DNA of 64,000 nucleotides from Cyclobacteriaceae bacterium (GTDB lineage: Bacteria; Bacteroidota; Bacteroidia; Cytophagales; Cyclobacteriaceae). Positions 5,685 through 24,605 of the stretch are shown here, one piece after another. The notes beneath the pieces were generated by a model. It worked only from the letters and a program-made list of their open reading frames with translations. It did not search any database and was not told the DNA's origin. A program made the translations under genes and the position numbers. How positions within the stretch are numbered: the stretch's first letter is position 1; every line of letters starts with the position of its first letter. The stretch lies in assembly GCA_044226825.1 (NCBI GenBank), contig JBGAGH010000003.1:133976-197975 (forward strand). Direction: 5' to 3'.

Positions 5685-7325
5685 ATGAAAAGAAGAGATT
5701 TTGTGCAGCTAGCCGGGCTTGGGCTGGGCGGGTTGGCCCTCCCCCTGTCTGCGTTAGGAAATCCGGTACCGGTCGAAGCGCTCCTTGAGTCCCCCCTCGA
5801 CCGTTCCCAGAAAAAGCAACTTTCCGACGTCGCGCTGAACACCGCTAGGTCGATGGGTGCCACGTATGCGGACGTCCGAATCGGCCGTTACCTGAACCAG
5901 TTTATCAGCACCCGCGAGAATAAAGTACAGGGTATCACGAGCACGGAATCCTACGGCGTGGGTGTGCGCGTGATTGTGAACGGGACCTGGGGGTTTGCGT
6001 CCACCAACATGGTCACCACCGACGGCGTCAAGGCGTGCACACAATCGGCTGTGGCCATTGCCAAGGCGAACTCGAAGTTTCAAAAAGAACCCGTGAAGTT
6101 AGCTCCTACCCCGGGCGTAGGAGACGTAGTTTGGAATACTCCTATTCAGAAGAACCCGTTGGAGGTACCGGTATCTGAAAAGGCGGACTTGCTCCTCGCA
6201 GCAAACGCCGCCGCGCTGAAAAACGGTGCTGCCTTCGTGAGTTCGAACCTGTTTCAGGTAAATGAACAGAAATACTTCGCATCAACGGATGGTTCGTACA
6301 TCGACCAAGATGTACACCGCATTTGGCCGAACTTCCAGGTAACTGCAGTTGACCGCGCCGCCAACAAGTTCAAAACTCGATCAGAAATGGCTGCTCCGCG
6401 CGGTTCTGGCTACGAGTATCTGATCCCCAAGAAGGAAGACAAGGTAGAGGGACCAGGCGGCATGATCTTTTATAAGGACAGCTACGACATGATTGAAGAT
6501 GCCACCATCGCCGCCAAGCAAGCGAAAGAAATGCTTACCGCGAAATCGGTCGAGCCGGGCAAGTACGACATGGTCCTCGAACCTAACCACCTCGGTTTAA
6601 CGATACACGAGTCCGTGGGTCATCCCCTTGAGCTGGATCGAATCCTCGGCTACGAAGCCAACTACGCCGGCACGAGCTTCGCCACGCTCGACAAGTTGAA
6701 ATCTGGCAACTTCAATTATGGAAGTAAGCAAGTGACCATCTTCGCCGACAAAATTCAACCCGGTTCGCTCGGCGCCGTGGGCTACGATGACGAAGGTGTT
6801 AAAACCAAACAGTGGGACTTGATCAAAGACGGTGTTCTCGTGAACCTGCAGGCTGTTCGCGACCAGGTACATATCCTTGGGCAAAAGGAATCTCATGGTT
6901 GCTGTTATGCTCAGAGTTGGAACGATGTCCAGTTTCAACGGATGCCGAACGTATCGCTTGCACCCGGGAAAGAACCTTACAGTGTAAACCAAATGATTCG
7001 CGACGTGGATAAGGGCATCTTCATCGCGGGCCGTGGCTCCTATTCGATTGACCAACAGCGCTACAACTTCCAGTTTGGCGGGACCGTGTTCTTCGAAATC
7101 AAAGGCGGCCAAATTACCGGTATGTTGAACGACGTGGCGTACCAAGCCAATACACAAGAATTCTGGAACAGTTGTTCGAAGGTTTGTGACCAATCGGATT
7201 ATCGGATGTTCGGTTCATTCTTCGACGGCAAAGGTCAACCGTCGCAGGTGAGCGCCGTGTCGCATGGAAGCGCGACCGCACGATTCGATAATATTAACGT
7301 GATCAACACAGGGCGAACCATCTGA
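5685..7325 (+). CDS. tldD: TldD-family metalloprotease, paralogue 1 (Tat signal; no dedicated TldE partner)
   Basis: MKRRDFVQL Tat signal; IHESVGHPLELD (HExxGH); YDDEGV; QRMPN; FDGKGQP. Confidence 0.92.
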   Translation: MKRRDFVQLAGLGLGGLALPLSALGNPVPVEALLESPLDRSQKKQLSDVALNTARSMGATYADVRIGRYLNQFISTRENKVQGITSTESYGVGVRVIVNGTWGFASTNMVTTDGVKACTQSAVAIAKANSKFQKEPVKLAPTPGVGDVVWNTPIQKNPLEVPVSEKADLLLAANAAALKNGAAFVSSNLFQVNEQKYFASTDGSYIDQDVHRIWPNFQVTAVDRAANKFKTRSEMAAPRGSGYEYLIPKKEDKVEGPGGMIFYKDSYDMIEDATIAAKQAKEMLTAKSVEPGKYDMVLEPNHLGLTIHESVGHPLELDRILGYEANYAGTSFATLDKLKSGNFNYGSKQVTIFADKIQPGSLGAVGYDDEGVKTKQWDLIKDGVLVNLQAVRDQVHILGQKESHGCCYAQSWNDVQFQRMPNVSLAPGKEPYSVNQMIRDVDKGIFIAGRGSYSIDQQRYNFQFGGTVFFEIKGGQITGMLNDVAYQANTQEFWNSCSKVCDQSDYRMFGSFFDGKGQPSQVSAVSHGSATARFDNINVINTGRTI

Positions 7326-7348
7326 CCTCAGTCAACAAAAGTTGAATT

Positions 7349-8986
7349 ATGAAAAGAAGGGATTTTATACAGTTAGCGGGACTTGGTGCGGGAGCGATGA
7401 TGCTGCCCTTACCCGGATTCACAGCGGTCGACGAGGCTCGATTGCTTGACAATTTCATCGATGTATCTCAAAAGAAGAAACTGGCGGATATCGCGTTGAA
7501 CACGACACGTCAGCTGGGCGCCACCTACACAGACGTTCGCATCGGTCGATACTTGAACCAAGTGGTCTCGACCCGCGAAAAGAAAGTACAAGGCGTCGTG
7601 AACACCGAGTCTTTTGGGGTGGGCATCCGCGTGATTGCGAACGACACTTGGGGATTCGCAGCCAGCAACGACGTGACACCGGAAGGAATAAAGAAAACCG
7701 CCGAGCGCGCCGTAATCATCGCGAAAGCGAATTCCAAGTTTCAAAAACAACCGGTTAAGCTAGCGTCGACGCCTGCGTATGGTGAGGTCTCTTGGAAAAC
7801 ACCGATTGTGAAGAATGGATTCGAAGTACCGATCAAAGACAAGGTCGACTTGTTGCTGAACGCGAATTCAAAAGCGATGGAAAAGGGTGCTGCCTTCGTG
7901 AACAGTGCCATCCTGCTGGTGAACGAGCAAAAATACTTCGCGTCCTCCGAGGGATCCTACATCGACCAAGACGTACACAGGATTTACCCCACCTTTACTG
8001 TGACGGGCATCGACCGGCAGGCGAACTCCTTCAAGAATCGCACTTCCTTTTCTTCGCCAGTTGGGATGGGGTACGAATACCTCGACGGCCGCGCCGAAGA
8101 CAAAATCAAATCGCCAGGCGATATCATCCTCTACAACAAGTCGTACGACATTTTGGAGGACGCATCGATGGCCGGCGACCAAGTCAAGCAAATGATCGCA
8201 GCCAAGTCGGTGGAACCTGGCAAATACGATCTTGCTCTTGAGCCGTCGCACATGTGGCTCACCATCCACGAATCGGTAGGTCACCCGACCGAACTCGATC
8301 GCGTGTTGGGATATGAGGCCAACTACGCGGGCACCAGTTTTCTTACGCTCGACAAATGGCAAACCAAGAAGTTTCGATTTGGTAGCCCGGTCGTCAACTT
8401 CGTAGCAGACAAGACCCAACCGGGATCTCTCGGTGCGGTGGGCTACGACGACGAAGGTGTGAAGTGTAAGTCGTGGGATCTCATTAAAGACGGTGTGCTC
8501 GTGAACTACCAAGCCATCCGCGACCAAGTGAGCATCTTGGGAGAAAAAGAATCTCATGGCTGCTGCTATTCGCAGAGTTGGGCCGACGTTCAATTCCAAC
8601 GCATGGCTAACGTGTCGTTGCAACCCGGAAAGGAGTCTTTGACACCAGAACAGTTGATCTCTAGCATCGACCGAGGAATTTACATCGTGAAGGATGCGTC
8701 GTTCTCAATCGATCAACAACGTTACAACTTCCAGTTTGGTGGTGTGTTGTTTTTCGAAATCAAGGGTGGCAAGATCGTAGGTATGTTGAAAGACGTGGCG
8801 TACCAAGCAAACACGCAAGAGTTCTGGAACTCGTGCTCAGCCATTTGCGACGCGCGCGACTATCGATTGGGCGGCGCCTTCAACGACGGGAAAGGACAAC
8901 CGAGCCAATCGAATGCTGTATCGCATGGATCGGCCACAGCACGTTTCAACGGTGTCAACGTCATCAACACTGGACGTACGATTTAG
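7349..8986 (+). CDS. tldD: TldD-family metalloprotease, paralogue 2 (Tat signal)
   Basis: MKRRDFIQL; IHESVGHPTELD; YDDEGV; NDGKGQP. Confidence 0.92.
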   Translation: MKRRDFIQLAGLGAGAMMLPLPGFTAVDEARLLDNFIDVSQKKKLADIALNTTRQLGATYTDVRIGRYLNQVVSTREKKVQGVVNTESFGVGIRVIANDTWGFAASNDVTPEGIKKTAERAVIIAKANSKFQKQPVKLASTPAYGEVSWKTPIVKNGFEVPIKDKVDLLLNANSKAMEKGAAFVNSAILLVNEQKYFASSEGSYIDQDVHRIYPTFTVTGIDRQANSFKNRTSFSSPVGMGYEYLDGRAEDKIKSPGDIILYNKSYDILEDASMAGDQVKQMIAAKSVEPGKYDLALEPSHMWLTIHESVGHPTELDRVLGYEANYAGTSFLTLDKWQTKKFRFGSPVVNFVADKTQPGSLGAVGYDDEGVKCKSWDLIKDGVLVNYQAIRDQVSILGEKESHGCCYSQSWADVQFQRMANVSLQPGKESLTPEQLISSIDRGIYIVKDASFSIDQQRYNFQFGGVLFFEIKGGKIVGMLKDVAYQANTQEFWNSCSAICDARDYRLGGAFNDGKGQPSQSNAVSHGSATARFNGVNVINTGRTI

Positions 8987-9017: not shown

Positions 9018-10364
9018 ATGTCATTGTTAAGTAAAGAAGAAGCAAAAAAGATCCTCGAAAAGGCGGTCGGATTTTCAAAGTCCGACGGAATTGCTGCCAA
9101 TCTCTCGGGGGCCGACCGGGGCAACATTCGCTACGCACGCAACAGCGTAACTACCTCGGGCGAAGACTCCAACATGAGCCTCGGGGTCACCTCGTTCTAT
9201 GGGAAGAAATCCGGGTCTGCGACCATCAACGAATTCGATGACGCGTCGATCGAAAAAGTAGTTCGTCGCGCCGAAGAGCTCGCTAAACTAGCGCCCGAAA
9301 ACCCAGAATTTGTAGAACCCCTACCTCAACAAACGTATGGGGCCGAAGCCAAAACCTTCTCGGAAGCGACGGCAAAGATCACACCCGACCTTCGTGCGCA
9401 GGCTGCTGCGGATAGTATCAACCCAGCTGCTGCCAAGAAGGTGACGGCCGCGGGCTATCTACAAGACAGCCGCGGATTCAACGCGATTATGAACAACAGA
9501 GGTTTGTACGCTTACAACAAGTCGACGAGCGTAGACTTTACCGTAACGATGCGGACCGATGACGGCACCGGTTCTGGGTGGGCCGCCCAGGATTTGAACG
9601 ACGTGAGCAAGTTAAATGCAGGTGCCACCTCGAAAGTTGCGATCGATAAAGCACTTCAATCGCGCGAAGCGAAAGCCATAGAACCAGGGAAGTACACAGT
9701 TATCTTGGAACCGGCCGCAGCAGCGGACTTGGTTCGTCTGATGCTGAATATGAATGCGCGTCAAGCGGACGAAGGTCGAAGCTTCCTCTCGAAAAAAGGC
9801 GGCGGCACTAAGTTGGGTGAAAAACTCGTCGATGAACGCGTCAACATTTATACAGACCCGTGGCACGAAGAAGTTCCCTCGTCGAACTGGGCTTTCGACG
9901 GCCTCGCGCGTCAAAAAATGGATTTGATCAAAGGGGGTGTGGTCTCCAACCTGATCTACGATCGTTATTGGGCCCAACAAAAAGGCGTCGCGCCGATTCC
10001 GTTCCCCGGAAACGCGATCATGGATGGAGGCAACGTGTCGGTGGAAGACATGATCAAGGACACGAAACGAGGCGTGCTCGTAACGCGCTTCTGGTATATC
10101 CGCCCTGTCGATCCTCAAACATTGCTATTCACAGGTTTGACCCGCGATGGAACTTTCTACATCGAAAATGGCAAGTTGAAACATCCAATTAAGAACTTTC
10201 GATTCAACGAAAGTCCGATTATCATGTTGAACAACTTGGAGGCGCTGGGCAAACAGGTGCGGGCGGTGACAAGCGAAGGCGGTCCTTTTGGAGGTCTGAA
10301 CCTATTGATTCCCTACATGAAGATTCGCGACTTCACCTTTACGAGCCTTTCCGACGCCGTTTAA
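9018..10364 (+). CDS. pmbA: TldE/PmbA-family subunit, paralogue 1 (no signal peptide)
   Basis: Likely start is ATG 9018 (MSLLSKEEAK), not the ORF-track 8913; PGKYTVILEP, GLTRDGTFYIENG, NFRFNES; no HExxH. Confidence 0.88.
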   Translation: MSLLSKEEAKKILEKAVGFSKSDGIAANLSGADRGNIRYARNSVTTSGEDSNMSLGVTSFYGKKSGSATINEFDDASIEKVVRRAEELAKLAPENPEFVEPLPQQTYGAEAKTFSEATAKITPDLRAQAAADSINPAAAKKVTAAGYLQDSRGFNAIMNNRGLYAYNKSTSVDFTVTMRTDDGTGSGWAAQDLNDVSKLNAGATSKVAIDKALQSREAKAIEPGKYTVILEPAAAADLVRLMLNMNARQADEGRSFLSKKGGGTKLGEKLVDERVNIYTDPWHEEVPSSNWAFDGLARQKMDLIKGGVVSNLIYDRYWAQQKGVAPIPFPGNAIMDGGNVSVEDMIKDTKRGVLVTRFWYIRPVDPQTLLFTGLTRDGTFYIENGKLKHPIKNFRFNESPIIMLNNLEALGKQVRAVTSEGGPFGGLNLLIPYMKIRDFTFTSLSDAV

Positions 10365-10390: not shown

Positions 10391-10422
10391 AGGACTGCCT
10401 CGCAACGGGCAGTCCTTTTTTT
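10391..10422 (+). terminator. Intrinsic terminator closing module 1 (D1-D2-E1)
   Basis: AGGACTGCC...GGCAGTCCT stem followed by a run of T. Confidence 0.85.
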
Positions 10423-10550
10423 CTTTGCGATGGCCCAATTTTTCATGGCCTTAGCAAATCCCGCAAGCGTGAGGAAGGTGAAATGCGCACTTTGTCCAGT
10501 TTCGGACAAGCCGCTGCTTGACCCGCGAACGAGAAAATGTTAATTAGCCC

Positions 10551-10626: not shown

Positions 10627-12261
10627 ATGAAACGACGAGATTTTATTTACCTAGCTGGTATGGGTGCAGCGGGAGCCGCTGTCTTACCGGGCATGGCGAA
10701 CGGTCGACCCATCACGGTGGAAGAGGCCCTGACGCCGGTAGACACTGCTTTGAAAAAGCGCATGGCCGATGTGGCACTCAACGCCGCGCGGTCGAAAGGT
10801 GCTTCCTACGCGGATGTGCGCATAGGCCGATACTTAAACCAATTTGTGATCACCCGCGAAGACAAGGTTCAGAATATTGCGAACACTGAATCATACGGAA
10901 TGGGAATTCGTGTGGTGGCGAATGGTGGCTGGGGCTTCGCCGCGGTCGACAAACTAGATAACGACAGCATCGCGCGAGCGGCTGAGCTGGCAGTCTCCAT
11001 CGCGAAAGAAAATTCTCGATTGCTTACCGAGAAAGTTCAACTTGCCCCGTTAACGGGACACGGTGAGGTGAGTTGGAAGACGCCTATTGAGAAAAACGCG
11101 TTCGAAGTTCCGATCAAAGATAAAGTTGACCTGTTGTTGAACGTCAACAACACGGCCATGAAGGCTGGAGCCAACTACATCACCTCACTCCTGTTCCTTA
11201 TCAACGAACAGAAGTACTTTGCGAGCACCGACGGGTCGTATATCGATCAAGACGTGCACCGCATTTGGCCCGCATTTTTTGCGACCTCGATCGATCCTTC
11301 TTCGGGTAAATTTGAAACAAGAAATTCACTCAGCGCTCCCATGGGTATGGGATATGAGTACCTCGACGTACGTCCGCAGGACAAAATCAACAGTGTGACG
11401 ACACTTTACAAAGGTCGCTACGACATGTTGGAAGACGCGCGCGCGGGTGGCGCCCAAGCCGTGGAGAAGTTGAAAGCCAAGTCGGTTGAACCTGGCAAGT
11501 ACGATCTCGTGCTCGACCCGTCGCACTTGTGGCTCACGATCCACGAGTCTGTTGGACACCCGACCGAACTCGACCGCGTGCTGGGTTATGAAGCCAACTT
11601 TGCCGGAACTTCGTTTTTGACCCTAGACAAGTGGCAATCGAAGAAGTTCAACTTCGGTAGCAAGATTGTGAATTTCGCCGCCGACAAAACACAAGTCGGC
11701 TCACTCGGTGCCGTCGGCTACGACGACGAAGGGGTGAAATGCGGAAAGTGGGATCTGATCAAAGACGGAATCTTGGTCAACTACCAAGTGATCCGCGATC
11801 AAGCGCACATTTTAGGTTTAAAGGAATCGCAAGGATGCTGCTACGCCGACAATTGGAGCAGCGTACAATTCCAGCGCATGCCCAATGTCTCGCTTCAACC
11901 GGGTAAAGAAAAGAAATCGGTCGACGATATCATCAAGGGCGTCGAGAAGGGCATCTACATCATTGGCGATGGATCGTTTTCGATCGACCAACAGCGATAC
12001 AATTTCCAGTTTGGTGGTCAACTCTTCTACGAGATCAAGAATGGAAAGATCGCGGGTATGTTGAAAGATGTCGCGTACCAGGCAAACAGTCAGGAGTTTT
12101 GGAATTCGTGCACTGCGATTGCGGACGAGAATGACTACCGCTTAGGTGGCGCATTCGGTGATGGCAAGGGTCAACCGCCGCAAAGCAACTCAGTATCGCA
12201 TGGTTCATCGACCGCGCGTTTCAATAATGTTAATGTTATCAATACCGCACGTCAAATCTGA
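10627..12261 (+). CDS. tldD: TldD-family metalloprotease, paralogue 3 (Tat signal)
   Basis: MKRRDFIYL; IHESVGHPTELD; GDGKGQP. Confidence 0.92.
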   Translation: MKRRDFIYLAGMGAAGAAVLPGMANGRPITVEEALTPVDTALKKRMADVALNAARSKGASYADVRIGRYLNQFVITREDKVQNIANTESYGMGIRVVANGGWGFAAVDKLDNDSIARAAELAVSIAKENSRLLTEKVQLAPLTGHGEVSWKTPIEKNAFEVPIKDKVDLLLNVNNTAMKAGANYITSLLFLINEQKYFASTDGSYIDQDVHRIWPAFFATSIDPSSGKFETRNSLSAPMGMGYEYLDVRPQDKINSVTTLYKGRYDMLEDARAGGAQAVEKLKAKSVEPGKYDLVLDPSHLWLTIHESVGHPTELDRVLGYEANFAGTSFLTLDKWQSKKFNFGSKIVNFAADKTQVGSLGAVGYDDEGVKCGKWDLIKDGILVNYQVIRDQAHILGLKESQGCCYADNWSSVQFQRMPNVSLQPGKEKKSVDDIIKGVEKGIYIIGDGSFSIDQQRYNFQFGGQLFYEIKNGKIAGMLKDVAYQANSQEFWNSCTAIADENDYRLGGAFGDGKGQPPQSNSVSHGSSTARFNNVNVINTARQI

Positions 12262-12269: not shown

Positions 12270-13604
12270 ATGCCAATACTCTCAAAAGATCAAGCGCAGG
12301 CTTTATTAAAGAAAGTGCTGAGCTATTCGAAAGCCGATGAATGTGAAGTTAATCTCACAGGAACCGACGGGGGCAACGTGAGGTATGCTCGAAACGCGGT
12401 CAGCACGAGCGGCATCGTCAGCCAAAGCCAGCTCGTCGTGCAGTCCGCCTATGGAAAGAAACTCGGGACAGCTACCATCAACGAGTTCGACGACGCTTCT
12501 CTCGAGAAGGTCGTTCGACGCTCGGAAGAATTGGCGCAGTTGGCGCCCGAGAACCCAGAGTATGTCAGCGTGCTGGGACCTCAGCAATACTCAGAGTCTA
12601 AGAGCTTTGTTCAGTCTACGGCTGCCATTACGCCCAAGCAGCGTTCGACCCTCGTAGAAGAAAGTCTGAACATTGCGAAGTCGAGTAAGACGGTGGCTGC
12701 GGGTTTCTTGGAAGACAACAACGGTTATGCCGCCATGGCAAACTCGAAAGGATTATTTGCCTACAACACTTCGACGAACACCAACTTTTCTGTTACGGTT
12801 CGCACCGAGGATGGCAAGGGCTCGGGCTATGCCACGCGTGGTTACAACGACATCACCAAGTTGGATACCAAGAGCGCCACACAGATCGCCGTAGAGAAAG
12901 CGGTTCGATCTGCGACTGCGAAAGCGATTGAACCCGGCAAATACACCGTGATCTTGGAACCCGCCGCGGTAGCGGTGCTGCTCGAAAACATATTCTTCAA
13001 CATGGATGCCCGGCAGGCGGACGAAGGGCGGAGCTTCCTCAGCAAGCCCGGTGGTCAAACCAAGCTCGGAGAAAAGATGGTGGACGAACGCGTCAACATT
13101 TATTCCGACCCGTTGCATCCAGAACTTCCCACGAGCCCGTGGGCCGGCGATGGTCGCCCACAGGAGAAAGTATCGTGGATCGAGAAAGGCGTCATCAAAA
13201 ACCTTACTTGGGGCCGCTATTGGGCCGAGAAGAAAGGTGTGAAAGCCATTCCCACACCCGACGCCGCCATCATGGAAGGTGGCACGAAGTCGCTCGATGA
13301 ACTAATACGCGGCACGAAAAAAGGTGTCCTCGTCACACGCCTCTGGTACATCCGCAGTGTGGACCCACAGACCCTCTTGCTCACAGGGTTGACACGCGAT
13401 GGAACGTTCTACATTGAAAATGGGGAGATCAAGTACCCGGTGAAGAATTTCCGCTTCAACGAGAGCCCCATCATCATGCTGAATAACTTGGAGGAATTGG
13501 GTCGTCAAGAAAGAACGGTGAGTGTCGAGTCAAACCTCAACTACCTTTTGCCACCGCTCAAGGTTCGCGACTTCACGTTCTCAAGCCTTTCCGACGCGGT
13601 TTAA
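12270..13604 (+). CDS. pmbA: TldE/PmbA-family subunit, paralogue 2
   Basis: PGKYTVILEP, GLTRDGTFYIENG, C-terminal FSSLSDAV; no signal peptide. Confidence 0.88.
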   Translation: MPILSKDQAQALLKKVLSYSKADECEVNLTGTDGGNVRYARNAVSTSGIVSQSQLVVQSAYGKKLGTATINEFDDASLEKVVRRSEELAQLAPENPEYVSVLGPQQYSESKSFVQSTAAITPKQRSTLVEESLNIAKSSKTVAAGFLEDNNGYAAMANSKGLFAYNTSTNTNFSVTVRTEDGKGSGYATRGYNDITKLDTKSATQIAVEKAVRSATAKAIEPGKYTVILEPAAVAVLLENIFFNMDARQADEGRSFLSKPGGQTKLGEKMVDERVNIYSDPLHPELPTSPWAGDGRPQEKVSWIEKGVIKNLTWGRYWAEKKGVKAIPTPDAAIMEGGTKSLDELIRGTKKGVLVTRLWYIRSVDPQTLLLTGLTRDGTFYIENGEIKYPVKNFRFNESPIIMLNNLEELGRQERTVSVESNLNYLLPPLKVRDFTFSSLSDAV

Positions 13605-13612: not shown

Positions 13613-13653
13613 ATGTCCGGGGGAATCGATTTCGAATCTCCCGGACATTTTTT
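13613..13653 (+). terminator. Intrinsic terminator closing module 2 (D3-E2)
   Basis: ATGTCCGGG...CCCGGACAT stem followed by TTTTT. Confidence 0.75.
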
Positions 13654-13712
13654 ATTGAAGGGACCACCGCGAACCCGTACCTTACGTTCCGGAAAAATCT
13701 AAACCTTACCCC

Positions 13713-15389: not shown

Positions 15390-16727
15390 ATGTTATCGAA
15401 AGACGAAGCCCGTAGCATTCTTCAAAAGACCCTTGGTTTCAGTAAAGCCAACGGTTGTGAAGCCACGCTCACCGAACAAGTAGTCGGAAATATCCGATAT
15501 GCTCGCAACACGGTGACCACCGCGGGAAAGAGTACAGACACGTCTATTAATATTACCTCCTATTTTGGAAAACGAGCAGGTGTTGCGACTGTGAACGAGT
15601 TCGACGATTCATCGCTCGAAAGAGGCGTTCGTGCATCTGAGGAGTTGGCGAAACTGGCGCCGGAGAATCCCGAGTTCATGGAGCCACTAGGGCCCCAGAC
15701 TTATGCCGAATCGAAGGCTTACTTTGAATCTACCGCCAACATTTCGGCGGAATTCAGAGCACAGGCTGCCTACGACAGCATCACGCCCGCTTCGAAGGTA
15801 GGTGTAACTGCCGCTGGCTACCTTGAAGACGGAGCCGTGGTGACGGCCATGATGAACAGCAAAGGGCTCTATGCCTACAATGCTGCCACGGGTGCGAACT
15901 TTACCGTTACGATGCGCAGCAACGATGGTACGGGCTCGGGTTGGGTACAACGTGACCACAACGACATCTCGAAGATCAATATCGCCGACGCATCGAAGAT
16001 CGCGATAGATAAGGCACTTCAATCGCGTCAGGCGAAAGCCATTGAACCCGGTAAGTACACCGTGATCTTGGAATCGCAAGCGGCTGGAGACTTAATCCAA
16101 ACCATGTTCTTTAGCATGGACGCCCGGAGTGCCGATGAAGGACGAAGCTTTCTATCAAAAAAAGGCGGCGGCACCAAGCTCGGGGAAAAAATTGTGGATG
16201 AACGCGTCAATATTTACACCGATCCGTTCCATCCCGACGCTCCGTCGGCCACGTGGTCGCAAGATGGTGTTCCATTAAAGAAAATGGACGTGATTAAGAA
16301 AGGTGTCGTGTCCAATTTATTTTATGATCGATACTGGGCTTCACAAAAAAATGTTGCTCCGGTACCGGCGCCTGCAAACCTAATCATGGAAGGTGGCAAT
16401 GCGTCGTTGGAGGACATGATCAAGGATACCAAACGCGGTGTGCTGGTGACGAGGCTTTGGTACATTCGTTCGGTCGACCCTCAAACACAGCTATACACGG
16501 GGTTAACCCGGGATGGTGTATTCTATATCGAAAACGGAAAGATCAAACATCCCGTGAAAAATTTCCGGTTCAATGAAAGTCCCGTAATCATGTTGAATAA
16601 TCTGGAGACACTTGGAAAGCAAAACCGTTTGGGAAGTGGCTTTGGTCAATTCGTCGGCGGAACATTCCTCGTTCCAAACATGAAAGTGCGCGATTTTACG
16701 TTCACAAGCTTATCCGACGCCGTATAA
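15390..16727 (+). CDS. pmbA: TldE/PmbA-family subunit, paralogue 3
   Basis: PGKYTVILES, GLTRDGVFYIENG, C-terminal FTSLSDAV; no signal peptide. Confidence 0.88.
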   Translation: MLSKDEARSILQKTLGFSKANGCEATLTEQVVGNIRYARNTVTTAGKSTDTSINITSYFGKRAGVATVNEFDDSSLERGVRASEELAKLAPENPEFMEPLGPQTYAESKAYFESTANISAEFRAQAAYDSITPASKVGVTAAGYLEDGAVVTAMMNSKGLYAYNAATGANFTVTMRSNDGTGSGWVQRDHNDISKINIADASKIAIDKALQSRQAKAIEPGKYTVILESQAAGDLIQTMFFSMDARSADEGRSFLSKKGGGTKLGEKIVDERVNIYTDPFHPDAPSATWSQDGVPLKKMDVIKKGVVSNLFYDRYWASQKNVAPVPAPANLIMEGGNASLEDMIKDTKRGVLVTRLWYIRSVDPQTQLYTGLTRDGVFYIENGKIKHPVKNFRFNESPVIMLNNLETLGKQNRLGSGFGQFVGGTFLVPNMKVRDFTFTSLSDAV

Positions 16728-16833
16728 TAGATTGCATTTTTTAACAAACGGTTGTGTCTAAAACTTCATAAGGCTAAGCTGCCGCTTGAATAAATTCAGA
16801 ACCTGCCAGTTAAAAATTAGCGATCATGGGAAT

Positions 16834-16879: not shown

Positions 16880-17512
16880 TTGAACACGGTCCGTTTTAAT
16901 AGCCCTTTCTTCTTCACCCGCCTCCAATATGAATCCGGAGATTGGGATGTGGACCAGCGCATGCCCTCGAACGTACTGAACTCTCTCATCGAGTACACGA
17001 CCCTGCCCGTGGATACCCAAGAGAATATCGTGGCACTCAGCAGCGACGCGATCTTTCGTTGCCCCTTTTGTTACCTGAGTGGGCATAAGCTTGTCGAATT
17101 CACGTCGACCGAACGGGAGAATTTGGAAAAATATATCAAGCAGGGAGGGTTTCTCTTCGTCGACGACTGCAACCACGACATCGATGGCCTCTTCGCCAAG
17201 TCGTTTGAGTCTCAAATGGAGAAAATCTTCGGGACAGGCTCACTCAAGAAAATCCCGAAGAACCACGAGCTTTACTCGGCATTTTTTCATTTCGACGGAC
17301 CGCCCGCGACCTCGCAAGAATTGAACGGCTGGGGCGACGACATCGTCCACGACTATCTGAAAGCCATCGAAATCAACGGCAAGATCGGAGTACTGTACAG
17401 CAACAAGGACTACGGGTGCGAATGGGACTACGACTTTCGAAACAAACGTTTTTATAAAATTGATAATACGCGGTTTAGTGTCAACATCGTGATGTACGCC
17501 CTAACCGCCTAG
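16880..17512 (+). CDS. DUF4159 domain protein
   Basis: TRLQYESGDWD, GGFLFVDDCNHD and KDYGCEW motifs; TTG start is the first possible start after an in-frame stop. Confidence 0.85.
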   Translation: MNTVRFNSPFFFTRLQYESGDWDVDQRMPSNVLNSLIEYTTLPVDTQENIVALSSDAIFRCPFCYLSGHKLVEFTSTERENLEKYIKQGGFLFVDDCNHDIDGLFAKSFESQMEKIFGTGSLKKIPKNHELYSAFFHFDGPPATSQELNGWGDDIVHDYLKAIEINGKIGVLYSNKDYGCEWDYDFRNKRFYKIDNTRFSVNIVMYALTA

Positions 17513-17522: not shown

Positions 17523-18533
17523 ATGAATGCTCCACTTCAAGCGACCGAACAACAAGTCAACGAACTCATCCAAGCACTTCAAAATCTGAAGCGTGAGATC
17601 AGAAAAGTCATCGTCGGACAAGAAGATACGGTCGATCAACTTTTGATCACCTTTCTTGCGGGCGGCCACGCGCTGCTCGAAGGTGTACCGGGTCTGGCGA
17701 AAACGCTGATGATCAGAACTCTCTCAGAAGCTGTTCACCTAAAGTTTCGACGAATCCAGTTCACGCCAGACCTGATGCCTTCGGACATCATTGGAACGGA
17801 AATCTTGGAAGAAGACCACACGACGGGAAAGAGAATATTCAAGTTCAATAAAGGGCCTTTGTTCGCCAACATTATCCTAGCCGACGAAATCAACCGTACA
17901 TCACCGAAGACACAATCGGCATTGTTGGAAGCCATGCAAGAATTTGAAGTTACCTACGGCGGTGTCACCTACCCACTCGAACGTCCCTTCTTCATCCTGG
18001 CCACTCAAAACCCGATCGAACAAGCGGGAACCTTTCCCCTACCCGAGGCGCAACTCGATCGATTCCTATTATACATCAGGATTGGGTACCCGAGCGCCGA
18101 GGAGGAACGTTCCATCTTGGAAAATACGACGGGCAAACGTTCGGTCCAGATCGAAAAAGTAATCACGGGCCAACAGATCGTCGAAGCGCAAAAGCTAGTC
18201 CGCGAAGTACACATCAGTTCGGATCTCGTTCAGGTCGTCTCCGACACCGTTCGAGCCACACGCCCCGATCAAACGCCTGTTGGGAAAGTAAAGGAATGGG
18301 TTCGGTGGGGCGCAGGACCGCGGGCAGGTCAAGCCATGATCCTCACCGCTAAAGCACGCGCATTGCAAAACGGCAACTTGTCGGTAACGCGCGAAGACAT
18401 CGCAAAAGTAGCGTACCCAGTGTTGAGGCACCGTATCTTGATGAACTTCCGCGCCGAGGCCGAAGGCGTAAAGTCCGACGACATCACGAAGGCAATCCTC
18501 GAGCATACGCTCGCCTTGCATAAGACTGTTTAG
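17523..18533 (+). CDS. MoxR-family AAA+ ATPase
   Basis: LLEGVPGLAKT Walker A, RIQFTPDLMPSD, LADEINR Walker B, ATQNPIEQAGTFPLPEAQLDRF. Confidence 0.95.
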   Translation: MNAPLQATEQQVNELIQALQNLKREIRKVIVGQEDTVDQLLITFLAGGHALLEGVPGLAKTLMIRTLSEAVHLKFRRIQFTPDLMPSDIIGTEILEEDHTTGKRIFKFNKGPLFANIILADEINRTSPKTQSALLEAMQEFEVTYGGVTYPLERPFFILATQNPIEQAGTFPLPEAQLDRFLLYIRIGYPSAEEERSILENTTGKRSVQIEKVITGQQIVEAQKLVREVHISSDLVQVVSDTVRATRPDQTPVGKVKEWVRWGAGPRAGQAMILTAKARALQNGNLSVTREDIAKVAYPVLRHRILMNFRAEAEGVKSDDITKAILEHTLALHKTV

Positions 18534-18534: not shown

Positions 18535-19431
18535 ATGAAGCAAGAAATCAACGATCTGCTGAAGCCCGAGCTACTCAATACCGTGAATGGTCTTGAGCTA
18601 GTCGCGCGCATCGTCGTTGAGGGTTTCATGAGCGGCAGCAACCGAAGCCAGTCGATAGGCGTCGGCTATGAATTTAGCCAGTACCGGAGCTACGAACCCG
18701 GCGACGACCTCCGCTTGTTGGACTGGAAGATGTACGGTAGGTCTGAAAGATACTACATCAAGCAATCGGAAATCGAGACCAACATCACCGTTAAATTCAT
18801 CCTCGACGCCAGCAAGTCGATGGAGTATAAAGAAAAGAGCATCAGCAAACTTCAATATGCCAAGGTGATGGCCGCTGCGCTCGCGTACCTGGCGCGAAAG
18901 CAAAGTGATACATTCGGTTTATACGTGGTCAACGAACACGGGTTAAAGATGATTGAGCCCCGGTTCGAACAACAGCAATTCATGCGGTTTCTAAACGAAC
19001 TCATTGCTGCAAAAGGCGAAGGCGGCTGGGGAAAGGGAAAAGATATCGAAGCACTCCATCATCATGTTGGGAAAGAAGTCATCATTTTCTTTACCGACCT
19101 GTACGATCATGGAAATGATCTTCAGCAGTTTATAGCCAACCTCAAGACAAGTCGTAACGAAGTAATCGTATTTCAAATCATGGGCTACGATGAAATAAAC
19201 TTAGAAACCGAGGGTGTCTTTACATTCGAAGACTTGGAAACGGGCCAACGCATGAAAGTCGACACCGTTGCCCAACAGAAAGCCTATCAGTCAAAGGTCG
19301 ATGAGTGGATACAGCAGTCTAAGTCGTGGATGCTGGAAAAGCAGATCGACTACCAACTAGTGAAACTCAATCAACCGGTAGAATCGGTCATCGCTAAATT
19401 TTTGAATAGTCGTAAACGGCTCCTCCGGTGA
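18535..19431 (+). CDS. DUF58 domain (vWA-like) protein
   Basis: EFSQYRSYEPGDDLRLLDWK; LDASKSM MIDAS-like motif; follows MoxR. Confidence 0.92.
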   Translation: MKQEINDLLKPELLNTVNGLELVARIVVEGFMSGSNRSQSIGVGYEFSQYRSYEPGDDLRLLDWKMYGRSERYYIKQSEIETNITVKFILDASKSMEYKEKSISKLQYAKVMAAALAYLARKQSDTFGLYVVNEHGLKMIEPRFEQQQFMRFLNELIAAKGEGGWGKGKDIEALHHHVGKEVIIFFTDLYDHGNDLQQFIANLKTSRNEVIVFQIMGYDEINLETEGVFTFEDLETGQRMKVDTVAQQKAYQSKVDEWIQQSKSWMLEKQIDYQLVKLNQPVESVIAKFLNSRKRLLR

Positions 19432-20621
19432 CCTTTTTGAATCCCGCATATCTTTGGGCGCTTTCCGCACTCGCCATCCCAGTGGCGATTCACTTGTTGA
19501 GTCGCAAAGAGGGCCGCGTCATTCGTGTGGGCTCCTTGCGACATGTTGAGGAATCGAATACCAGTCAATTCAAATCCATTCGCCCCAATGAGATATTGAT
19601 TTTCATCCTTCGGGCACTCATGTTTATATGCATGGTGTTTTTCCTCGCCGGAGCGCAATGCACATCGTCCGACCCATCATCTTCTCGATGGCTTGTCGTG
19701 GAAACAGGTATCGACAAAGACCCGATTTACCGACCAACCATCGATAGTCTCGTCAAGAACGGTTTCGAACAACACTTTCTGGCGCCCGGGTTTCCGTTGG
19801 AAGCGCCTTCCGGCGTCGTTCCCAATTATCGCATGCTGGCACTCGACCTCGGCACTCTTGGGTTCGAAGTGGTCGTCATCTCGTGGTCGAAGGCCAATCG
19901 ATTCTTAGGAACGCGAATACCAATCCCTCCCAATGTGCGATGGATTACCGCCGACCACGCGCCGATCACGTATCCAGCCTATGCACGCCAGTTCGGCGAT
20001 AGCCTACTCACTCGAACAGCCACTTCGTCCGGAGCTGGTACAAACTATTCCTCTCAATTTGAATTTGGACCGGGCCAAGACACCTGGCGAGATTCCATTG
20101 CAGTCGACAAACCAATTTCACAGCGTGTTCACTTGTTTGCCGATGCAGACCATGAAGACCTGAAGCGAGTATTTGACGCTGCCCTTTCAGTGCTCAAAAA
20201 AGACTTTCACTTACCCGTGGTCGTGACAGACGATGCCGCCTCCGCGGATTGGGTTTTTTGGTTAAGCGACGCGCGTCCCAAGCTTCCCGCAACGGTTCAC
20301 GCAGCCCTGCTCGATGCCCAAGCGTCAGGTCCGATTTTCGAGCAGACAGGGCCCAATACGTGGGCAATCCGACAGCTCAAGGATCGAAGTGATGCAATTC
20401 GTCACAATCTCGTCTTAGAATTGTACCGACTGATGTATTCAGCGGAAAAAACCGATCCATCGGATGTGCGTTCACTACCCGAAGCTATGGCATTTTCGAA
20501 CGTGTCGTCAACGGACCAATCCAACCCGACGCCGACGCGCGATCTTGCCGCGCTATGGATCTCGATCCTTTTGGTGACCCTCAGTCTTGAACGTTGGCTT
20601 TCGTGGAAAAGGAATCAATGA
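19428..20621 (+). CDS. BatA N-terminal domain membrane protein
   Basis: MTFLNPAYLWAL...IPVAIHLL double-TM N-terminus; C-terminal TM ending LERWLS; GTGA overlap with DUF58. Confidence 0.85.
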   Translation: MTFLNPAYLWALSALAIPVAIHLLSRKEGRVIRVGSLRHVEESNTSQFKSIRPNEILIFILRALMFICMVFFLAGAQCTSSDPSSSRWLVVETGIDKDPIYRPTIDSLVKNGFEQHFLAPGFPLEAPSGVVPNYRMLALDLGTLGFEVVVISWSKANRFLGTRIPIPPNVRWITADHAPITYPAYARQFGDSLLTRTATSSGAGTNYSSQFEFGPGQDTWRDSIAVDKPISQRVHLFADADHEDLKRVFDAALSVLKKDFHLPVVVTDDAASADWVFWLSDARPKLPATVHAALLDAQASGPIFEQTGPNTWAIRQLKDRSDAIRHNLVLELYRLMYSAEKTDPSDVRSLPEAMAFSNVSSTDQSNPTPTRDLAALWISILLVTLSLERWLSWKRNQ

Positions 20622-22879
20622 ACGGTTTGTCGACGATATCAAAAATCAAGGCACGCTACCTCCGGTTACGATGGTTGGAGGTTGTCCTGTTTGGCGCCGC
20701 CGCTGCCACTTTATGCGTGATGGTCGCCTGGCTTTTTCACACACCGTTGTGGCTAGCGATCGGAATAGGTGTCGCCATTGGTATTGGCGTTGGTATGCAA
20801 CGGGCTTTTGCGCTAAAGCTCCATCAAGTTGACAACCTGCGAATCTCCTTTTACCTGAATCGGTTTTATCCTCCACTCAAAGACAGCAGCGATCTGTTGG
20901 TGAAAGATGTGAACACTTTATCCAAGCTTGAGCAAATCCAACTTCAAAGAATGGATCAAGCGTTGAACGACATCCTTCCCTCCATTCAGCTACCGAATCA
21001 ACTAAGGCTTGCGTTGGGATCGGTAGCTGCCTCGGTCGTCGTCGCGCTTGCGTGTTGGTATTGGCAACCGAATGTGGGAACGACGCCCGGCGCATCATTG
21101 ACCACAGCAGAACCGCCTGCGTCAGAGCCCACGGACGCGAAGGCAACGATCGATCCGCGCATCAAGCGTGTCGAGGTCGAAATCACTCCGCCTGCCTACA
21201 CCGGGTTACCCAGCAGAAAATCCAGCGCCCTTTCCTTTCATGCACCCGAGGGAAGCGTCATCACTTGGACCCTATCCTTTCACCACGCTGTCGCCGCCGC
21301 AAAGGTAGTGATGACCACTGGCGACTCGGCCGTTGCAAATCGTGGCGGCGAGACCGTAACGCTACGCACCGTCGCCCGTGCCACCGCAATTTACCGCCTA
21401 CAATGGCAAATAGAAGAGACATGGCACGCGTCGGACTACGCCCGCGTTGAAGTTTTGCCTGATCAAGTTCCAAGCGTCGTCGTCAATGACCTACCACAAT
21501 TCACGAAACTAAAATGGGGGGAACGGAAGTCAATCGACGTGAGTTCGCGGCTTCAAGACGACTACGGTTTGACATCTGGGCATGTCATTGCAACCGTTAG
21601 CAAAGGCAGCGGAGAATCCGTGAAGTTCCGCGAAGAGGAAATTCCCTTCACAACGCCGGTATCAGGAAAGCAAACGACCGGAAAGCTTACCCTCGATTTC
21701 CAAAAGTTGGGAATGGAACCCGGCGACGAAGTCTATTTTTATGTGGAAGCATTCGACAACAAGTTACCTCAACACCAAAGAAACCGAACAGATACCTACT
21801 TTATCGCCCTCCAAGACACGGCACAGCAGGAAATGGTGATGGATGAAGGACTCGGCGTCGACTTGATGCCCGACTACTTCCGGAGTCAACGTCAGTTGAT
21901 CATCGATACAGAGAAACTCCTCGCCCAACAAAAAAAGATCAGCACCAAGCAATTCAACAGCACTAGCAACGAGCTTGGGTACGATCAGAAAGTATTGCGT
22001 CTCCGCTACGGCCAGTTTCTAGGTGAGGAGTTTGAGACATCCATAGGGGAATCTGCCGTCGCCGAACAGGAAGAAGGCGAAGACGCAAAAGATGAAGACA
22101 TCATGAAGAAATACGGCCATCAACACGACACGGAAAACGAGCACAACTTGGTGGCTGACAAAAAGGCGCCGGAAACCGGTCATCAGCACGAGAACGAAGA
22201 GGATAAAAATGATCCGATGGCGGCGTTTCGACATGATCACGACAGCGAAGAGGAAGCAACCTTCTTCACACAGTCTATTAAGGCCAAGCTTCGCGCAGCG
22301 CTTACGTTGATGTGGGATTCGGAGCTACAGCTTCGCATGTTCAAACCAAAAGAATCCCTCCCGTATCAGTATCAAATTCTTAAGTTACTGAAAGAGATAA
22401 GCCAAGACTCGCGCGTGTATGTCCACAGAATGGGATTCGACCCACCACCCTTGAAAGAGGAGCGACGCCTGACCGGTTCGTTGGATGAAATCAAACCCTC
22501 GCAGACCGTACAAGATCCGACAGAAGCCGAAACGCTTCCCGCCATCCGCCGGGCACTCTCAGATATAGCGAAACTGCTCGAGCACGGACAAATCACGATC
22601 TCCGAAAATCAACGACTACACCTACAACAAGCAGGAGACGAGCTGGCATCCGTCGCCCTAACAAGTCCCGGGAACTACCTCAGGCAATTATCCGAAATCA
22701 AATCAATCGTTGAGGGGAAAGTGAACATGAAAGAAGCCACTCCTGTGCTTCGGTCCATTCAACAAGCGTTTTGGAGCGTGCTCCCGAAAGAGGCCCTCTC
22801 CCCTGCCCGAACACAAACCGGTGGCCATACATTGGACGTGAGATTGATGGATGAATTGAAATCGAAAGCGAATGAGTGA
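20618..22879 (+). CDS. Large membrane-anchored protein (DUF4175-like) with His/acid-rich tract
   Basis: ATGA overlap with the upstream stop; N-terminal TMs, ITPPAYTG, DDYGL, PGDEVYFYVEAFDN, MPDYFRSQRQLIIDTE. Confidence 0.75.
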   Translation: MNGLSTISKIKARYLRLRWLEVVLFGAAAATLCVMVAWLFHTPLWLAIGIGVAIGIGVGMQRAFALKLHQVDNLRISFYLNRFYPPLKDSSDLLVKDVNTLSKLEQIQLQRMDQALNDILPSIQLPNQLRLALGSVAASVVVALACWYWQPNVGTTPGASLTTAEPPASEPTDAKATIDPRIKRVEVEITPPAYTGLPSRKSSALSFHAPEGSVITWTLSFHHAVAAAKVVMTTGDSAVANRGGETVTLRTVARATAIYRLQWQIEETWHASDYARVEVLPDQVPSVVVNDLPQFTKLKWGERKSIDVSSRLQDDYGLTSGHVIATVSKGSGESVKFREEEIPFTTPVSGKQTTGKLTLDFQKLGMEPGDEVYFYVEAFDNKLPQHQRNRTDTYFIALQDTAQQEMVMDEGLGVDLMPDYFRSQRQLIIDTEKLLAQQKKISTKQFNSTSNELGYDQKVLRLRYGQFLGEEFETSIGESAVAEQEEGEDAKDEDIMKKYGHQHDTENEHNLVADKKAPETGHQHENEEDKNDPMAAFRHDHDSEEEATFFTQSIKAKLRAALTLMWDSELQLRMFKPKESLPYQYQILKLLKEISQDSRVYVHRMGFDPPPLKEERRLTGSLDEIKPSQTVQDPTEAETLPAIRRALSDIAKLLEHGQITISENQRLHLQQAGDELASVALTSPGNYLRQLSEIKSIVEGKVNMKEATPVLRSIQQAFWSVLPKEALSPARTQTGGHTLDVRLMDELKSKANE

Positions 22880-24605
22880 ACCTTGGATCCTTTGGAACCC
22901 GGTGTTCCCCGCTTCGCTTGTCATTGTCGGCGCGTTCATCGGGCTAGTCGGCCTACTTTTTTTCGAGTACCGTCGAAAGATCAAGTACCGCGCAGGGCGG
23001 ATGCTGGCACAGTTCCTCTTCGTTTGCTCCATCACATTACTAATTCTACGTCCTTCTTGGCCAAGTGCCCAACCTCAGAAAGGTTTTTTGCTCCTGACAA
23101 ATGGCTACGATCCCGCGCAAGTATCCTCAATCCTTGGGGAGCACCCGGCCCTAGAACCGGTTTCGATGCCCGACGCGAAGCCCTACCCAGACGCGAGAGC
23201 ACTAAAGTCGTATCACGAACTTGCGTCGATGGGTGATCGGGTGGCGACCGTCGTGGGACATGGACTTCCTAGCTGGGCGTTGGGCTTGATTCAAAAACCT
23301 GACTACACGTTCGCTCCTTCGCCAACCAAAGGTATTTCACGATTAAATGTCGACAACAGGCGATTGGCCAATCGCTGGAACACCATCGAGGGTACGTACA
23401 CTGGAGATCAACCGGCGTGGATTCGGCTGCGCGGACCAGCGGGGATCGAAGACTCGATTCAAGTAACTCCGGGTGAGTCTCCATTTACCCTAAACTTTTT
23501 CTCCAAGTCCGCAGGCCATTTCATGTACGAAGTGACAACACCCGATGCCAACGAACCGCTTCCACTCTACATTGAACCCGAAGCACAACTGTCGGTGGTG
23601 ATCATCGTCGACTATCCGACCTTTGAAACACGGTATCTGAAAAACTTCTTGGCATCGAAAGGGCACCGCGTCACGATTCGCACCCGAGTCTCGAAAGAGA
23701 AATTCAAATTCGAATTCGACAACATTACCCCTCATGAATTCAAGCAGTTGAATGACCAACTGCTTTCGACAGCCGACATCTTGGTGATCGATGCACGCGC
23801 GTTTCAGTCACTGAACTTTGGCGAACAAAAATCAGTGCGCGCCAACATCGTCTCGGGTTTAGGTGTGGTGCTGCTCCCGGACCCGTCGATCAAGAAGGGA
23901 CCGGAACTACTGTCTTTTGCGCCCACAAACGACGTGGATACTGTATCGATCAAATTGCCACGTGCGAATGTGATTCGTCTACCCAGCGTGCCGCTCCGGC
24001 CCACCGCGCGGATTGAAACCATCGCCTCCTCCACCAAAGGAAGGATCATGACGGGCTACCAGATATCGGGGCTCGGAAAAATAGGGTTCACCTTACTAAA
24101 AGAGACCTATCAGCTCGGGTTACAATCCAAAGGCGACGACTACTCGCTGCTTTGGGTCCCACTCTTTGAAAAATGTGCGCGAACGAAAATCGATCCTTTC
24201 CAAATCAAGGTACTCACACCATTTCCCAGGTATACCGACGCGCCCATCGACATTGAAGTCTTATCGAATGGAAAAACACCGCGCGTTTCGATGGATAGTA
24301 TCGATGTCCCGGTATCCGAAGACCTCCGAATTGACGATGTTTTCGATGCTCGGATTTGGGTCGCCAAACCGGGATGGCACGAACTTAAGGCCGACTCCAC
24401 AACACAATGGTTGTATGTAGCGGCTCCCGAGACCTGGTCTACCGTAACTGCGGCGGAGAATATGAGGGTCACGTCGCTGCACGCTTCCGCCGAATGGCAC
24501 GAACGGTCGCCCGAACCGGTGCACAACCATGGGCTTCCCACCGTCATTCTCTTTCTGATTTTTGTGGGCTCTTCCGGGTTTTTGTGGCTGGCTCCGAAAC
24601 TTTAA
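22872..24605 (+). CDS. Membrane protein of the MoxR/DUF58 cluster, function unknown
   Basis: Overlaps the upstream stop; two N-terminal TMs and a C-terminal TM (LFLIFVGSSGFLWLAPKL). Confidence 0.8.
   Translation: MSEPWILWNPVFPASLVIVGAFIGLVGLLFFEYRRKIKYRAGRMLAQFLFVCSITLLILRPSWPSAQPQKGFLLLTNGYDPAQVSSILGEHPALEPVSMPDAKPYPDARALKSYHELASMGDRVATVVGHGLPSWALGLIQKPDYTFAPSPTKGISRLNVDNRRLANRWNTIEGTYTGDQPAWIRLRGPAGIEDSIQVTPGESPFTLNFFSKSAGHFMYEVTTPDANEPLPLYIEPEAQLSVVIIVDYPTFETRYLKNFLASKGHRVTIRTRVSKEKFKFEFDNITPHEFKQLNDQLLSTADILVIDARAFQSLNFGEQKSVRANIVSGLGVVLLPDPSIKKGPELLSFAPTNDVDTVSIKLPRANVIRLPSVPLRPTARIETIASSTKGRIMTGYQISGLGKIGFTLLKETYQLGLQSKGDDYSLLWVPLFEKCARTKIDPFQIKVLTPFPRYTDAPIDIEVLSNGKTPRVSMDSIDVPVSEDLRIDDVFDARIWVAKPGWHELKADSTTQWLYVAAPETWSTVTAAENMRVTSLHASAEWHERSPEPVHNHGLPTVILFLIFVGSSGFLWLAPKL

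Follow-up and report, generated by a model that had tools for sequence, protein, structure and literature searches.

What brings an array of TldD/E peptidase genes together with the operon of a MoxR-type ATPase, and what might the two do for one another? The question is raised by a 64,000-nucleotide (nt) stretch of a Cyclobacteriaceae genome (contig JBGAGH010000003.1, positions 133,976 to 197,975; hereafter the window), in which thirteen co-oriented genes fill 5685-24605. Seven belong to the TldD/PmbA family, in the order D-D-E-D-E-D-E (4 TldD and 3 TldE), and six form a module encoding a DUF4159 protein, a MoxR AAA+ ATPase, a DUF58 protein, a BatA_N protein, a DUF4175-like membrane protein and a membrane protein of 577 amino acids (aa) (Table 1). 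A preliminary description had proposed that the TldD/E array feeds into this module, which would be dedicated to assembling, metallating or quality-controlling TldD/E before export by twin-arginine translocation (Tat), or would build an envelope scaffold for it. Our comparisons bear out the view that the two gene sets belong together, while the notions of general co-transcription, of a dedicated role and of metallation before export fare poorly.

The evidence for the association comes from two scans, one based on DUF4159 with one genome per species (80 loci, 69-88% identity) and one based on TldD in metagenomes (80 loci, 65-89% identity), TldD-selected loci being counted as assessable when each flank reached 3 kb or more. 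The nearest upstream homologue of the DUF4159-MoxR genes is a TldD/E gene in 77 of the 79 assessable species genomes (TldE, or TldD in Massilia), and downstream of DUF4159 in those loci come MoxR, DUF58, usually BatA_N, a DUF4175-like gene and usually the gene for the 577-aa protein. Starting from TldD, the module accompanies TldD/E in 41 of 46 assessable metagenome loci, 34 others being only partly assessable. The co-occurrence of Tat-exported TldD with DUF4159/MoxR, which the preliminary description had offered as a check on its proposal, is thus found from either side. Carriers among the Cytophagales include Chryseotalea, Chryseolinea, Fulvivirga, Ekhidna, Dyadobacter, Flectobacillus and Algoriphagus, and among the Flavobacteriales Maribacter, Gillisia, Flagellimonas, Aquimarina, Salegentibacter and others. 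Several cultured Massilia species and Telluria antibiotica (loci L149, L151, L152, L157, L159, L163 and L166), all Betaproteobacteria, hold the entire TldD/E-DUF4159-MoxR-DUF58-BatA_N-DUF4175 cluster with gaps of 4-25 nt, BatA_N and DUF4175 being confirmed by Pfam in Massilia, and a gammaproteobacterial metagenome-assembled genome (MAG; L160) also holds the cluster. The DUF4159 proteins of Massilia, Telluria and L160 are 72-76% identical to the Bacteroidota protein, and the cluster looks, on this sequence comparison, to have moved horizontally as a unit into Betaproteobacteria. The outer flanks vary, with accC and the CHU_C gene present only in the nearest relatives, and three loci (L066, L067 and L084) are rearranged, with DUF4159 inverted and a TldD-E-D set placed after the last module gene, the two sets still lying together. 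Because the adjacency survives changed flanks, rearrangement and residence in Betaproteobacteria, functional coupling of TldD/E with the module is well supported on genomic grounds.

The literature holds little on this pairing. An operon of Stenotrophomonas maltophilia, called "not-yet-characterized", comprises two TldD, a MoxR-like ATPase, a protease, a membrane protein and three hypothetical proteins, and RNA sequencing of biofilms found some of its genes down-regulated in every isolate (PMC7688217). In full-text searches this passing mention was the only TldD-MoxR link found, and DUF4159 was described nowhere beyond a Pfam database article; a genome paper on the Planctomycetes-Verrucomicrobia-Chlamydiae (PVC) group held nothing on this operon, and a survey of Tat substrates in P. 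aeruginosa did not mention TldD.

Could the adjacency simply be inherited synteny between two unrelated neighbouring systems? Close relatives do share fabH-efp-accB-accC upstream and CHU_C downstream, and terminators part the two units, as described below. Identity of the adjacent TldE also fails to track that of MoxR (rho 0.15), but this co-evolution test is confounded by paralogy, because E3 of the window has no orthologue in the relatives, and we used it neither way. Against mere inheritance, the link is kept with differing flanks in both Cytophagales and Flavobacteriales and in a rearranged layout, Betaproteobacteria and Gammaproteobacteria keep it at operon-tight spacing, and the outgroup lacks it, which points to a single origin followed by retention; we consider unrelated neighbours highly improbable.

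That outgroup is informative about which of the two parts came first. The next DUF4159 clade belongs to the Longimicrobiaceae (Gemmatimonadota), with about 53% identity, and its clusters are made of the identical six gene families, arranged in L168 and L169 as MoxR-DUF58-BatA-DUF4175-like (763-771 aa)-DUF4159-Y (544-549 aa). They differ in that DUF4159 comes after the DUF4175-like gene and before Y and has its own signal peptide, and in that no TldD/E was found within 10 kb of the module. The six-gene module is therefore older than its link to TldD/E, which does not suit the idea of a dedicated module, and, with an outgroup lacking the link, the link arose once and was then retained. Judging by gene order, DUF4159 is relocated to the front of the module, beside TldE, in the Bacteroidota-centred clade.

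This relocation coincides with a particular distribution of export signals. The RRxF Tat motif occurs in 204 of 214 TldD, 0 of 179 TldE and 4 of 126 DUF4159 proteins of relatives. In the window all four TldD carry an S/T-R-R-x-F-L-K-type Tat motif with a hydrophobic stretch, their N-termini reading M[KN]RRDF[VI].LAG/SGLG with a stretch rich in Gly, Ala and Leu after M[KN]RRDF; the curated model TIGR01409 gives D3 16.2 bits against a cut-off of 16.7, so that the Tat assignment rests on the motif and not on that model. Neither a signal peptide nor HExxxH was found in any of E1, E2 and E3 (0/3), and the HESVGH metal site is present in D1a, D1b, D2 and D3 only. Of the DUF4159 proteins of Longimicrobiaceae, whose loci lack TldD/E, 111 of 114 begin with a signal-like sequence. 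In the linked clade the signal is missing from 108 of 119, which reach the conserved core in no more than 15 residues, and a hydrophobic N-terminal stretch is present in only 2 of the 119. A few linked loci (L072, L080, L160 and similar) encode a DUF4159 with its own twin-arginine signal, and at least 10 representative clusters have DUF4159 fused C-terminally to the DUF4175-like protein; no fusion of TldD/E with DUF4159 was found in 150 DUF4159 representatives. Taken together, the signals in Longimicrobiaceae, the fusions to the DUF4175-like protein and the DUF4159 proteins with Tat signals of their own indicate that DUF4159 was ancestrally periplasmic or secreted. To judge from these N-termini, it has lost its signal in the TldDE-linked clade, and we infer its location there.

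The remaining module proteins divide between the two faces of the inner membrane when topology is read by hand from hydropathy and the positive-inside rule. No hydrophobic segment shows up in MoxR or DUF58. The BatA_N and 577-aa proteins each have two N-terminal transmembrane segments (TM) and one C-terminal TM. Their common plan starts with a short N-terminus outside; the TM hairpin that follows has a strongly basic loop in the cytoplasm, and a large domain lies outside before the C-terminal TM. The DUF4175-like protein has a strongly positive N-terminus, a TM hairpin, a cytoplasmic helical segment of about 70 residues at positions ~69-136, a third TM and some 600 residues outside. An AlphaFold model of its longer, 761-aa reading (54 sequences, predicted local distance difference test score (pLDDT) 76) reproduces the hydropathy helices and shows two immunoglobulin (Ig)-like beta-sandwiches (190-407) followed by a helical domain (422-760), in which a disordered loop is rich in His and acidic residues; a Foldseek search with this model returned only generic Ig-like sandwiches. 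The preliminary description had called the last three proteins membrane-anchored with large soluble domains, and hydropathy agrees for all three, as does the model for the 761-aa reading. Three of the six module proteins are thus predicted to be mostly periplasmic by mass, and in Borrelia the vWA domain of a BatA-type protein faces the periplasm by experiment (PMC5700661). The His/Asp/Glu-rich loop of the 761-aa reading spans residues ~478-550, with H509, H549 and D550 invariant and H547 nearly so, and could be a metal-binding site.

We favour, at somewhat better than an even chance, a model in which the module would serve as a periplasmic platform or scaffold for exported TldD/E, remodelled from the cytoplasm by MoxR and DUF58, with TldE and DUF4159 as Tat passengers. 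The two units would be adjacent and cooperating but for the most part separately transcribed. In the first, TldD and TldE would fold in the cytoplasm as heterodimeric metallopeptidases and leave through Tat, TldE riding as a passenger with the twin-arginine signal borne by TldD alone. The second, older unit would consist of cytoplasmic MoxR, its DUF58 partner of the vWA/MIDAS (metal ion-dependent adhesion site) type, three inner-membrane proteins and DUF4159, and would have acquired TldD/E as its partner within the clade centred on Bacteroidota. Its membrane proteins, together with DUF4159, would form a platform on the periplasmic side of the inner membrane, where exported TldD/E would be received, positioned or assembled, and MoxR and DUF58 would remodel or assemble this platform from the cytoplasmic side. 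DUF4159, devoid of its own signal, would be a second passenger on the Tat signal of TldD, for which PaoABC offers a natural precedent of ternary Tat hitchhiking (PMC4273604). E. coli TldD/E, an obligate heterodimer, makes up a hollow shell into which unfolded N-termini thread, its Zn or Fe held by TldD alone (PMC5810440). The model draws directly on gene content, motifs, hydropathy topology, conserved adjacency and on where signals are kept or lost; physical interaction, co-export and the direction of dependence are what we infer from these.

If the module instead acted before export, MoxR and DUF58 would be a dedicated chaperone that metallates TldD, or assembles and proof-reads TldD-TldE, in the cytoplasm, the membrane proteins serving as a tether near the Tat translocon. 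MoxR-vWA pairs have been tied to metal-cofactor insertion and complex maturation (PMC3893208), the DUF58 protein retains a DxSxS MIDAS-type motif, TldD holds the metal of the pair, and substrates must reach Tat already folded and assembled; such a role agrees with the linkage statistics as well as a scaffold does. Yet with three of the six proteins predicted to be largely periplasmic and DUF4159 ancestrally secreted, this would be much periplasmic machinery for a cytoplasmic step, the Gemmatimonadota keep the module with no TldD/E nearby, and E. coli TldD gains its metal without such a system (PMC5810440). Since most of the module is periplasmic by prediction and pre-dates the link, we prefer an envelope scaffold and regard cytoplasmic maturation as unlikely; of the functions put forward in the preliminary description, the scaffold is thus the one favoured, and metallation before Tat export is less consistent with the periplasmic anatomy.

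A more ambitious version of the platform would be a single trans-envelope machine, in which ATP hydrolysis by MoxR/DUF58 is coupled to the platform so that polypeptides are unfolded or handed to TldD/E. TldD would export TldE and DUF4159, the complex would dock on the three membrane proteins at their periplasmic domains, and the substrates would be periplasmic or membrane polypeptides, with TldD/E acting as an ATP-less "pencil sharpener". We hold this to be distinctly improbable, but if it is true, it would amount to energy-coupled periplasmic proteolysis and to the first client of an MRP-type MoxR/DUF58/BatA module.

How the two units are expressed bears on all of these possibilities. The preliminary description had seen no clear terminator after E3, and our own scan for hairpins with T-runs likewise found none 3' of E3; it did find terminator-like hairpins after E1 and E2 that had gone unnoticed, so the array is not one transcript. 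In relatives the spacer between TldE and DUF4159 has a median length of 121 nt (152 nt between E3 and DUF4159 in the window), and the same kind of scan detects a strong hairpin and T-run in it at 76 of 115 loci. The motif CCGYTYRWATAAWTT lies, in close relatives, 3' of the terminator and 45-85 nt 5' of DUF4159; it occurs once in the window, at 16782-16796, and is a candidate promoter or operator (Table 1). CCGYTYRWATAAWTT also occurs at L107, a locus without TldDE. In Chryseotalea sanaruensis (L090, 6739-6753) it stands upstream of TldD, not of DUF4159 as in other relatives, a position that hints at a regulatory element common to both units. Co-transcription of TldE with the DUF4159 operon would, from these spacers, usually not occur and is not the general design. 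Orthology mapping gives the order in relatives as D1a-D1b-E1-D2-E2, followed by DUF4159, and no orthologue of D3 or E3 was found in the fetched loci, where the best matches, to D1b/E1-type genes, reach 77% and 72%, respectively. Since E2 leads directly to DUF4159 in relatives and D3 and E3 have no orthologues there, the D3-E3 pair appears to have been inserted between the terminator of E2 and the promoter region of DUF4159, and such an insertion would explain the missing terminator after E3. The idea that the array feeds into the module does not extend to the relatives, with their terminators and a promoter-like motif before DUF4159; read-through from D3-E3 into the DUF4159 operon is possible as something particular to this window.

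Searches for standard promoter elements gave no signal above expectation. Bacteroidota promoters differ from the sigma-70 consensus, and scans for sigma-70 promoter and terminator consensus stayed at the shuffled level (13 versus 13.1 and 24 versus 25.2 expected). The best promoter-like site, at 16701-16728 (11/12), overlaps the E3 stop and was given no weight because Bacteroidota use other promoters. The Bacteroidetes -7 box TAnnTTTG is absent from the window spacer and occurs 5 times against 8.3 expected across 103 spacers, and the spacer RNA folds with a z-score of -2.9, with no terminator shape found.

Separate terminators and promoters are also compatible with independent expression of two systems that share a task, such as turnover of periplasmic or imported peptides or quality control of envelope proteins, without forming a complex, or with TldD/E processing or regulating the periplasmic domains of the module. 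An unlinked TldD/E pair (L068, 2812-14204) sits in what resembles a peptide-utilisation locus, where genes for a SusC-like TonB receptor, a SusD-like protein and a penicillin amidase precede it and one for an S9 peptidase follows, and in Rhizobium mutants of RL3499 and RL3500 (MoxR and DUF58) are impaired on peptide-rich TY but not on minimal medium (PMC5118466). However, such strict adjacency across orders and through horizontal transfer is more typical of physically interacting products, and such a reading does not explain why the linked clade lost the DUF4159 signal in a coordinated way. Moreover, RL3499-RL3502 is no more than a presumed member of this module type. A shared task without a complex seems to us quite unlikely.

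Several findings nonetheless weigh against the platform model. Given the TldE/DUF4159 terminators of most relatives, the two units need not be made together, and the only public runs labelled as RNA that contain this sequence (X7 and X14) are flat at about 3-5x over the genes of both strands, DNA-like and uninformative on 16727-16880. The six gene families occur in Gemmatimonadota without adjacent TldD/E, two DUF4159 modules (L107 and L162) have no TldD/E nearby, and five to seven TldD/E loci have no module nearby (five assessable, with L039 and L071 partial, these two having 7-8 kb downstream without the module and less than 3 kb of upstream DNA); with unlinked loci of both kinds, adjacency is not a strict requirement for either part. 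The topology is a hydropathy-based prediction, and the signal-less DUF4159 could simply be cytoplasmic in the linked clade.

Table 1. Genes and candidate regulatory elements of the TldD/E-MoxR cluster, in window coordinates.
Feature	Position	Strand	Description
TldD D1a	5685..7325	+	546 aa; Tat signal MKRRDFVQLAGLG; HESVGH at residue 308
TldD D1b	7349..8986	+	545 aa; Tat signal; HESVGH; directly 3' of D1a, no TldE between
TldE/PmbA E1	9018..10364	+	448 aa from ATG at 9018; no signal peptide, no HExxxH
Terminator-like hairpin + T-run after E1	10391..10426	+	10 pairs, 6 GC; hairpin 10391-10416
TldD D2	10627..12261	+	544 aa; Tat signal; HESVGH
TldE E2	12270..13604	+	444 aa; orthologue of the DUF4159-adjoining TldE in close relatives
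Terminator-like hairpin + T-run after E2	13615..13656	+	matches the last-TldE/DUF4159 terminator of relatives
TldD D3	13713..15353	+	546 aa; Tat signal MNRRDFVRLSGLG; HESVGH
TldE E3	15390..16727	+	445 aa; no terminator 3' of E3
Conserved spacer motif CCGCTTGAATAAATT	16782..16796	+	candidate promoter/operator of the DUF4159-MoxR operon; once in window
DUF4159 protein	16880..17512	+	210 aa; TTG start; no signal peptide; Pfam E 2e-52
MoxR-type AAA+ ATPase	17523..18533	+	336 aa; AAA_3 + AAA_lid_2; predicted cytoplasmic
DUF58 / vWA-like protein	18535..19431	+	298 aa; DxSxS (DASKS, residue 91); no TM; E 7e-37
BatA_N / TIGR02226 double-TM protein	19428..20621	+	397 aa; residues 77-372 predicted periplasmic; C-terminal TM
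DUF4175-like membrane protein	20618..22879	+	753 aa from ATG at 20618 (761-aa longer reading); 3 TM
577-aa membrane protein	22872..24605	+	no family; N-terminal TM hairpin, ~490-aa predicted periplasmic domain, C-terminal TM

All three Pfam domains of the family (PmbA_TldD_1st, 2nd and 3rd) are matched above curated cut-offs in all seven open reading frames of the array. The other TldD paralogues are 64-69% identical to D1a and are therefore old duplicates. The D-D-E arrangement, in which D1a and D1b precede a single TldE, is kept in many Cytophagales relatives and leaves 4 D to 3 E, and it raises the question of whether D-D' pairing or a shared TldE is possible; what is seen here of TldD-TldE heterodimers is gene pairing, with the D1a-D1b tandem unpaired. 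Upstream of D1a, identical 48-nt copies lie at 5128-5175 and 5491-5538, each with a minus-strand hairpin, and contigs from other samples join or diverge there (a joint from 5475 to 5174, loose ends at 5237 and 5275), from which it follows that this stretch varies between strains. The organism, a Cytophagales bacterium closely related to "Cyclobacteriaceae", Ohtaekwangia and Chryseolinea MAGs, occurs in bioreactor and sludge metagenomes.

The six co-oriented genes of the module are as tightly set as the preliminary description had reported, with gaps of 10, 1, -4, -4 and -8 nt in order (the fifth gene taken from its ATG at 20618) and start/stop overlaps at 19428, 20618 and 22872 all verified. 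The DUF4159 model (PF13709) is matched over 201 of its 202 positions, a full-length match; the protein contains the motif DDCNHDIDG, with D95, D96, H99, D100 and D102 invariant in the surrounding stretch of the alignment, and a profile search matches the uncharacterised Hoch_4089 (PDB 4i66, E 1.5e-14). The MoxR protein matches the Pfam models AAA_3 (E 4.9e-62) and AAA_lid_2 (E 1.6e-15) and has, as a MoxR should, a DUF58/vWA neighbour, which begins 1 nt past its stop. BatA_N (Pfam E 3e-13) covers only residues 1-75 of its protein, in which Pfam found no vWA domain even at E <= 5, and no TPR domain was found by Pfam in any of the six proteins. The DUF4175-like and 577-aa proteins have no Pfam match, the DUF4175 model PF13779 included; relatives of the former (44-59% identity) carry PF13779 or the name "DUF4175 family protein", and its Massilia orthologue matches PF13779 at E 8e-14. 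For the 577-aa protein, a PDB profile search gave no matches, 30 orthologues scanned against Pfam showed only weak matches here and there, one being ThuA, and hhalign against DUF4159 gave a probability of 2%; a fold predicted from the single sequence was unusable (pLDDT 37).

The block ends at a convergent gene on the minus strand (24608-27589) for a 993-aa protein with a CHU_C type IX secretion domain, which adjoins the cluster only in the closest relatives. Elsewhere in the window, intergenic arrays of an 8-nt unit (TCNTCCYN-like, ~6-9 copies) lie at gene ends at 53346-53423, 56577-56662 and 62186-62235.

Compared with known systems, the array resembles E. coli TldD/TldE (PmbA) in its three-domain architecture, in HExxxH being restricted to the TldD type, in its paired genes and in an invariant Cys that may be a third metal ligand. 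The E. coli enzyme is cytoplasmic, whereas the twin-arginine signal of the TldD proteins here predicts a periplasmic location; there are 4 D and 3 E with one D-D-E, each D being ~65 residues longer than E. coli TldD, and the link to a MoxR module lies outside the TldD/E biology described in PMC5810440. With the Tat hitchhikers HybOC, DmsAB and PaoABC (PMC4273604), the cluster shares one subunit with an RR signal, signal-less partners and adjacent genes, but co-export of TldE, and especially of DUF4159, is read here from the presence or absence of signals alone.

By its gene content the module is an MRP-type MoxR operon but not a Bat operon (moxR-DUF58-batA-batB-batC-batD-batE). The two are alike in an AAA_3 MoxR, a DUF58 protein, the N-terminal double TM of BatA and a cell-envelope setting, and they differ in that BatA_N here lacks a vWA domain, that the TPR proteins BatC, BatD and BatE are absent, the next gene being the convergent CHU_C one, and that DUF4159, the DUF4175-like protein, the 577-aa membrane protein and a TldD/E neighbour are present. 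MRP-type MoxR-DUF58-BatA modules are very widespread and have been tied to aerotolerance, stress resistance and envelope integrity; we know of no established clients. The nearest studied relative is probably RL3499-RL3502 of Rhizobium leguminosarum, likewise an MRP-type MoxR and DUF58 operon, of which RL3499 and RL3500 are needed on peptide-rich medium. RL3501 and RL3502 are presumably of the BatA_N, DUF4159 or DUF4175 types, and the operon is not known to be associated with Tat-TldD/E. RL3499-RL3502 has been called a "broadly conserved operon" and tied to envelope integrity and cell shape (Vanderlinde 2011, cited in PMC3893208 and PMC5118466).

TldDE is the first candidate partner for a long-enigmatic MoxR module. 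The conserved and horizontally mobile pairing makes it a concrete candidate, testable in cultivable hosts such as Maribacter, Gillisia, Dyadobacter, Massilia and Stenotrophomonas. The pairing also suggests that the TldD/E family has a periplasmic branch, and, as flagged by the signal loss of DUF4159, it may represent a new case of multi-subunit Tat hitchhiking.

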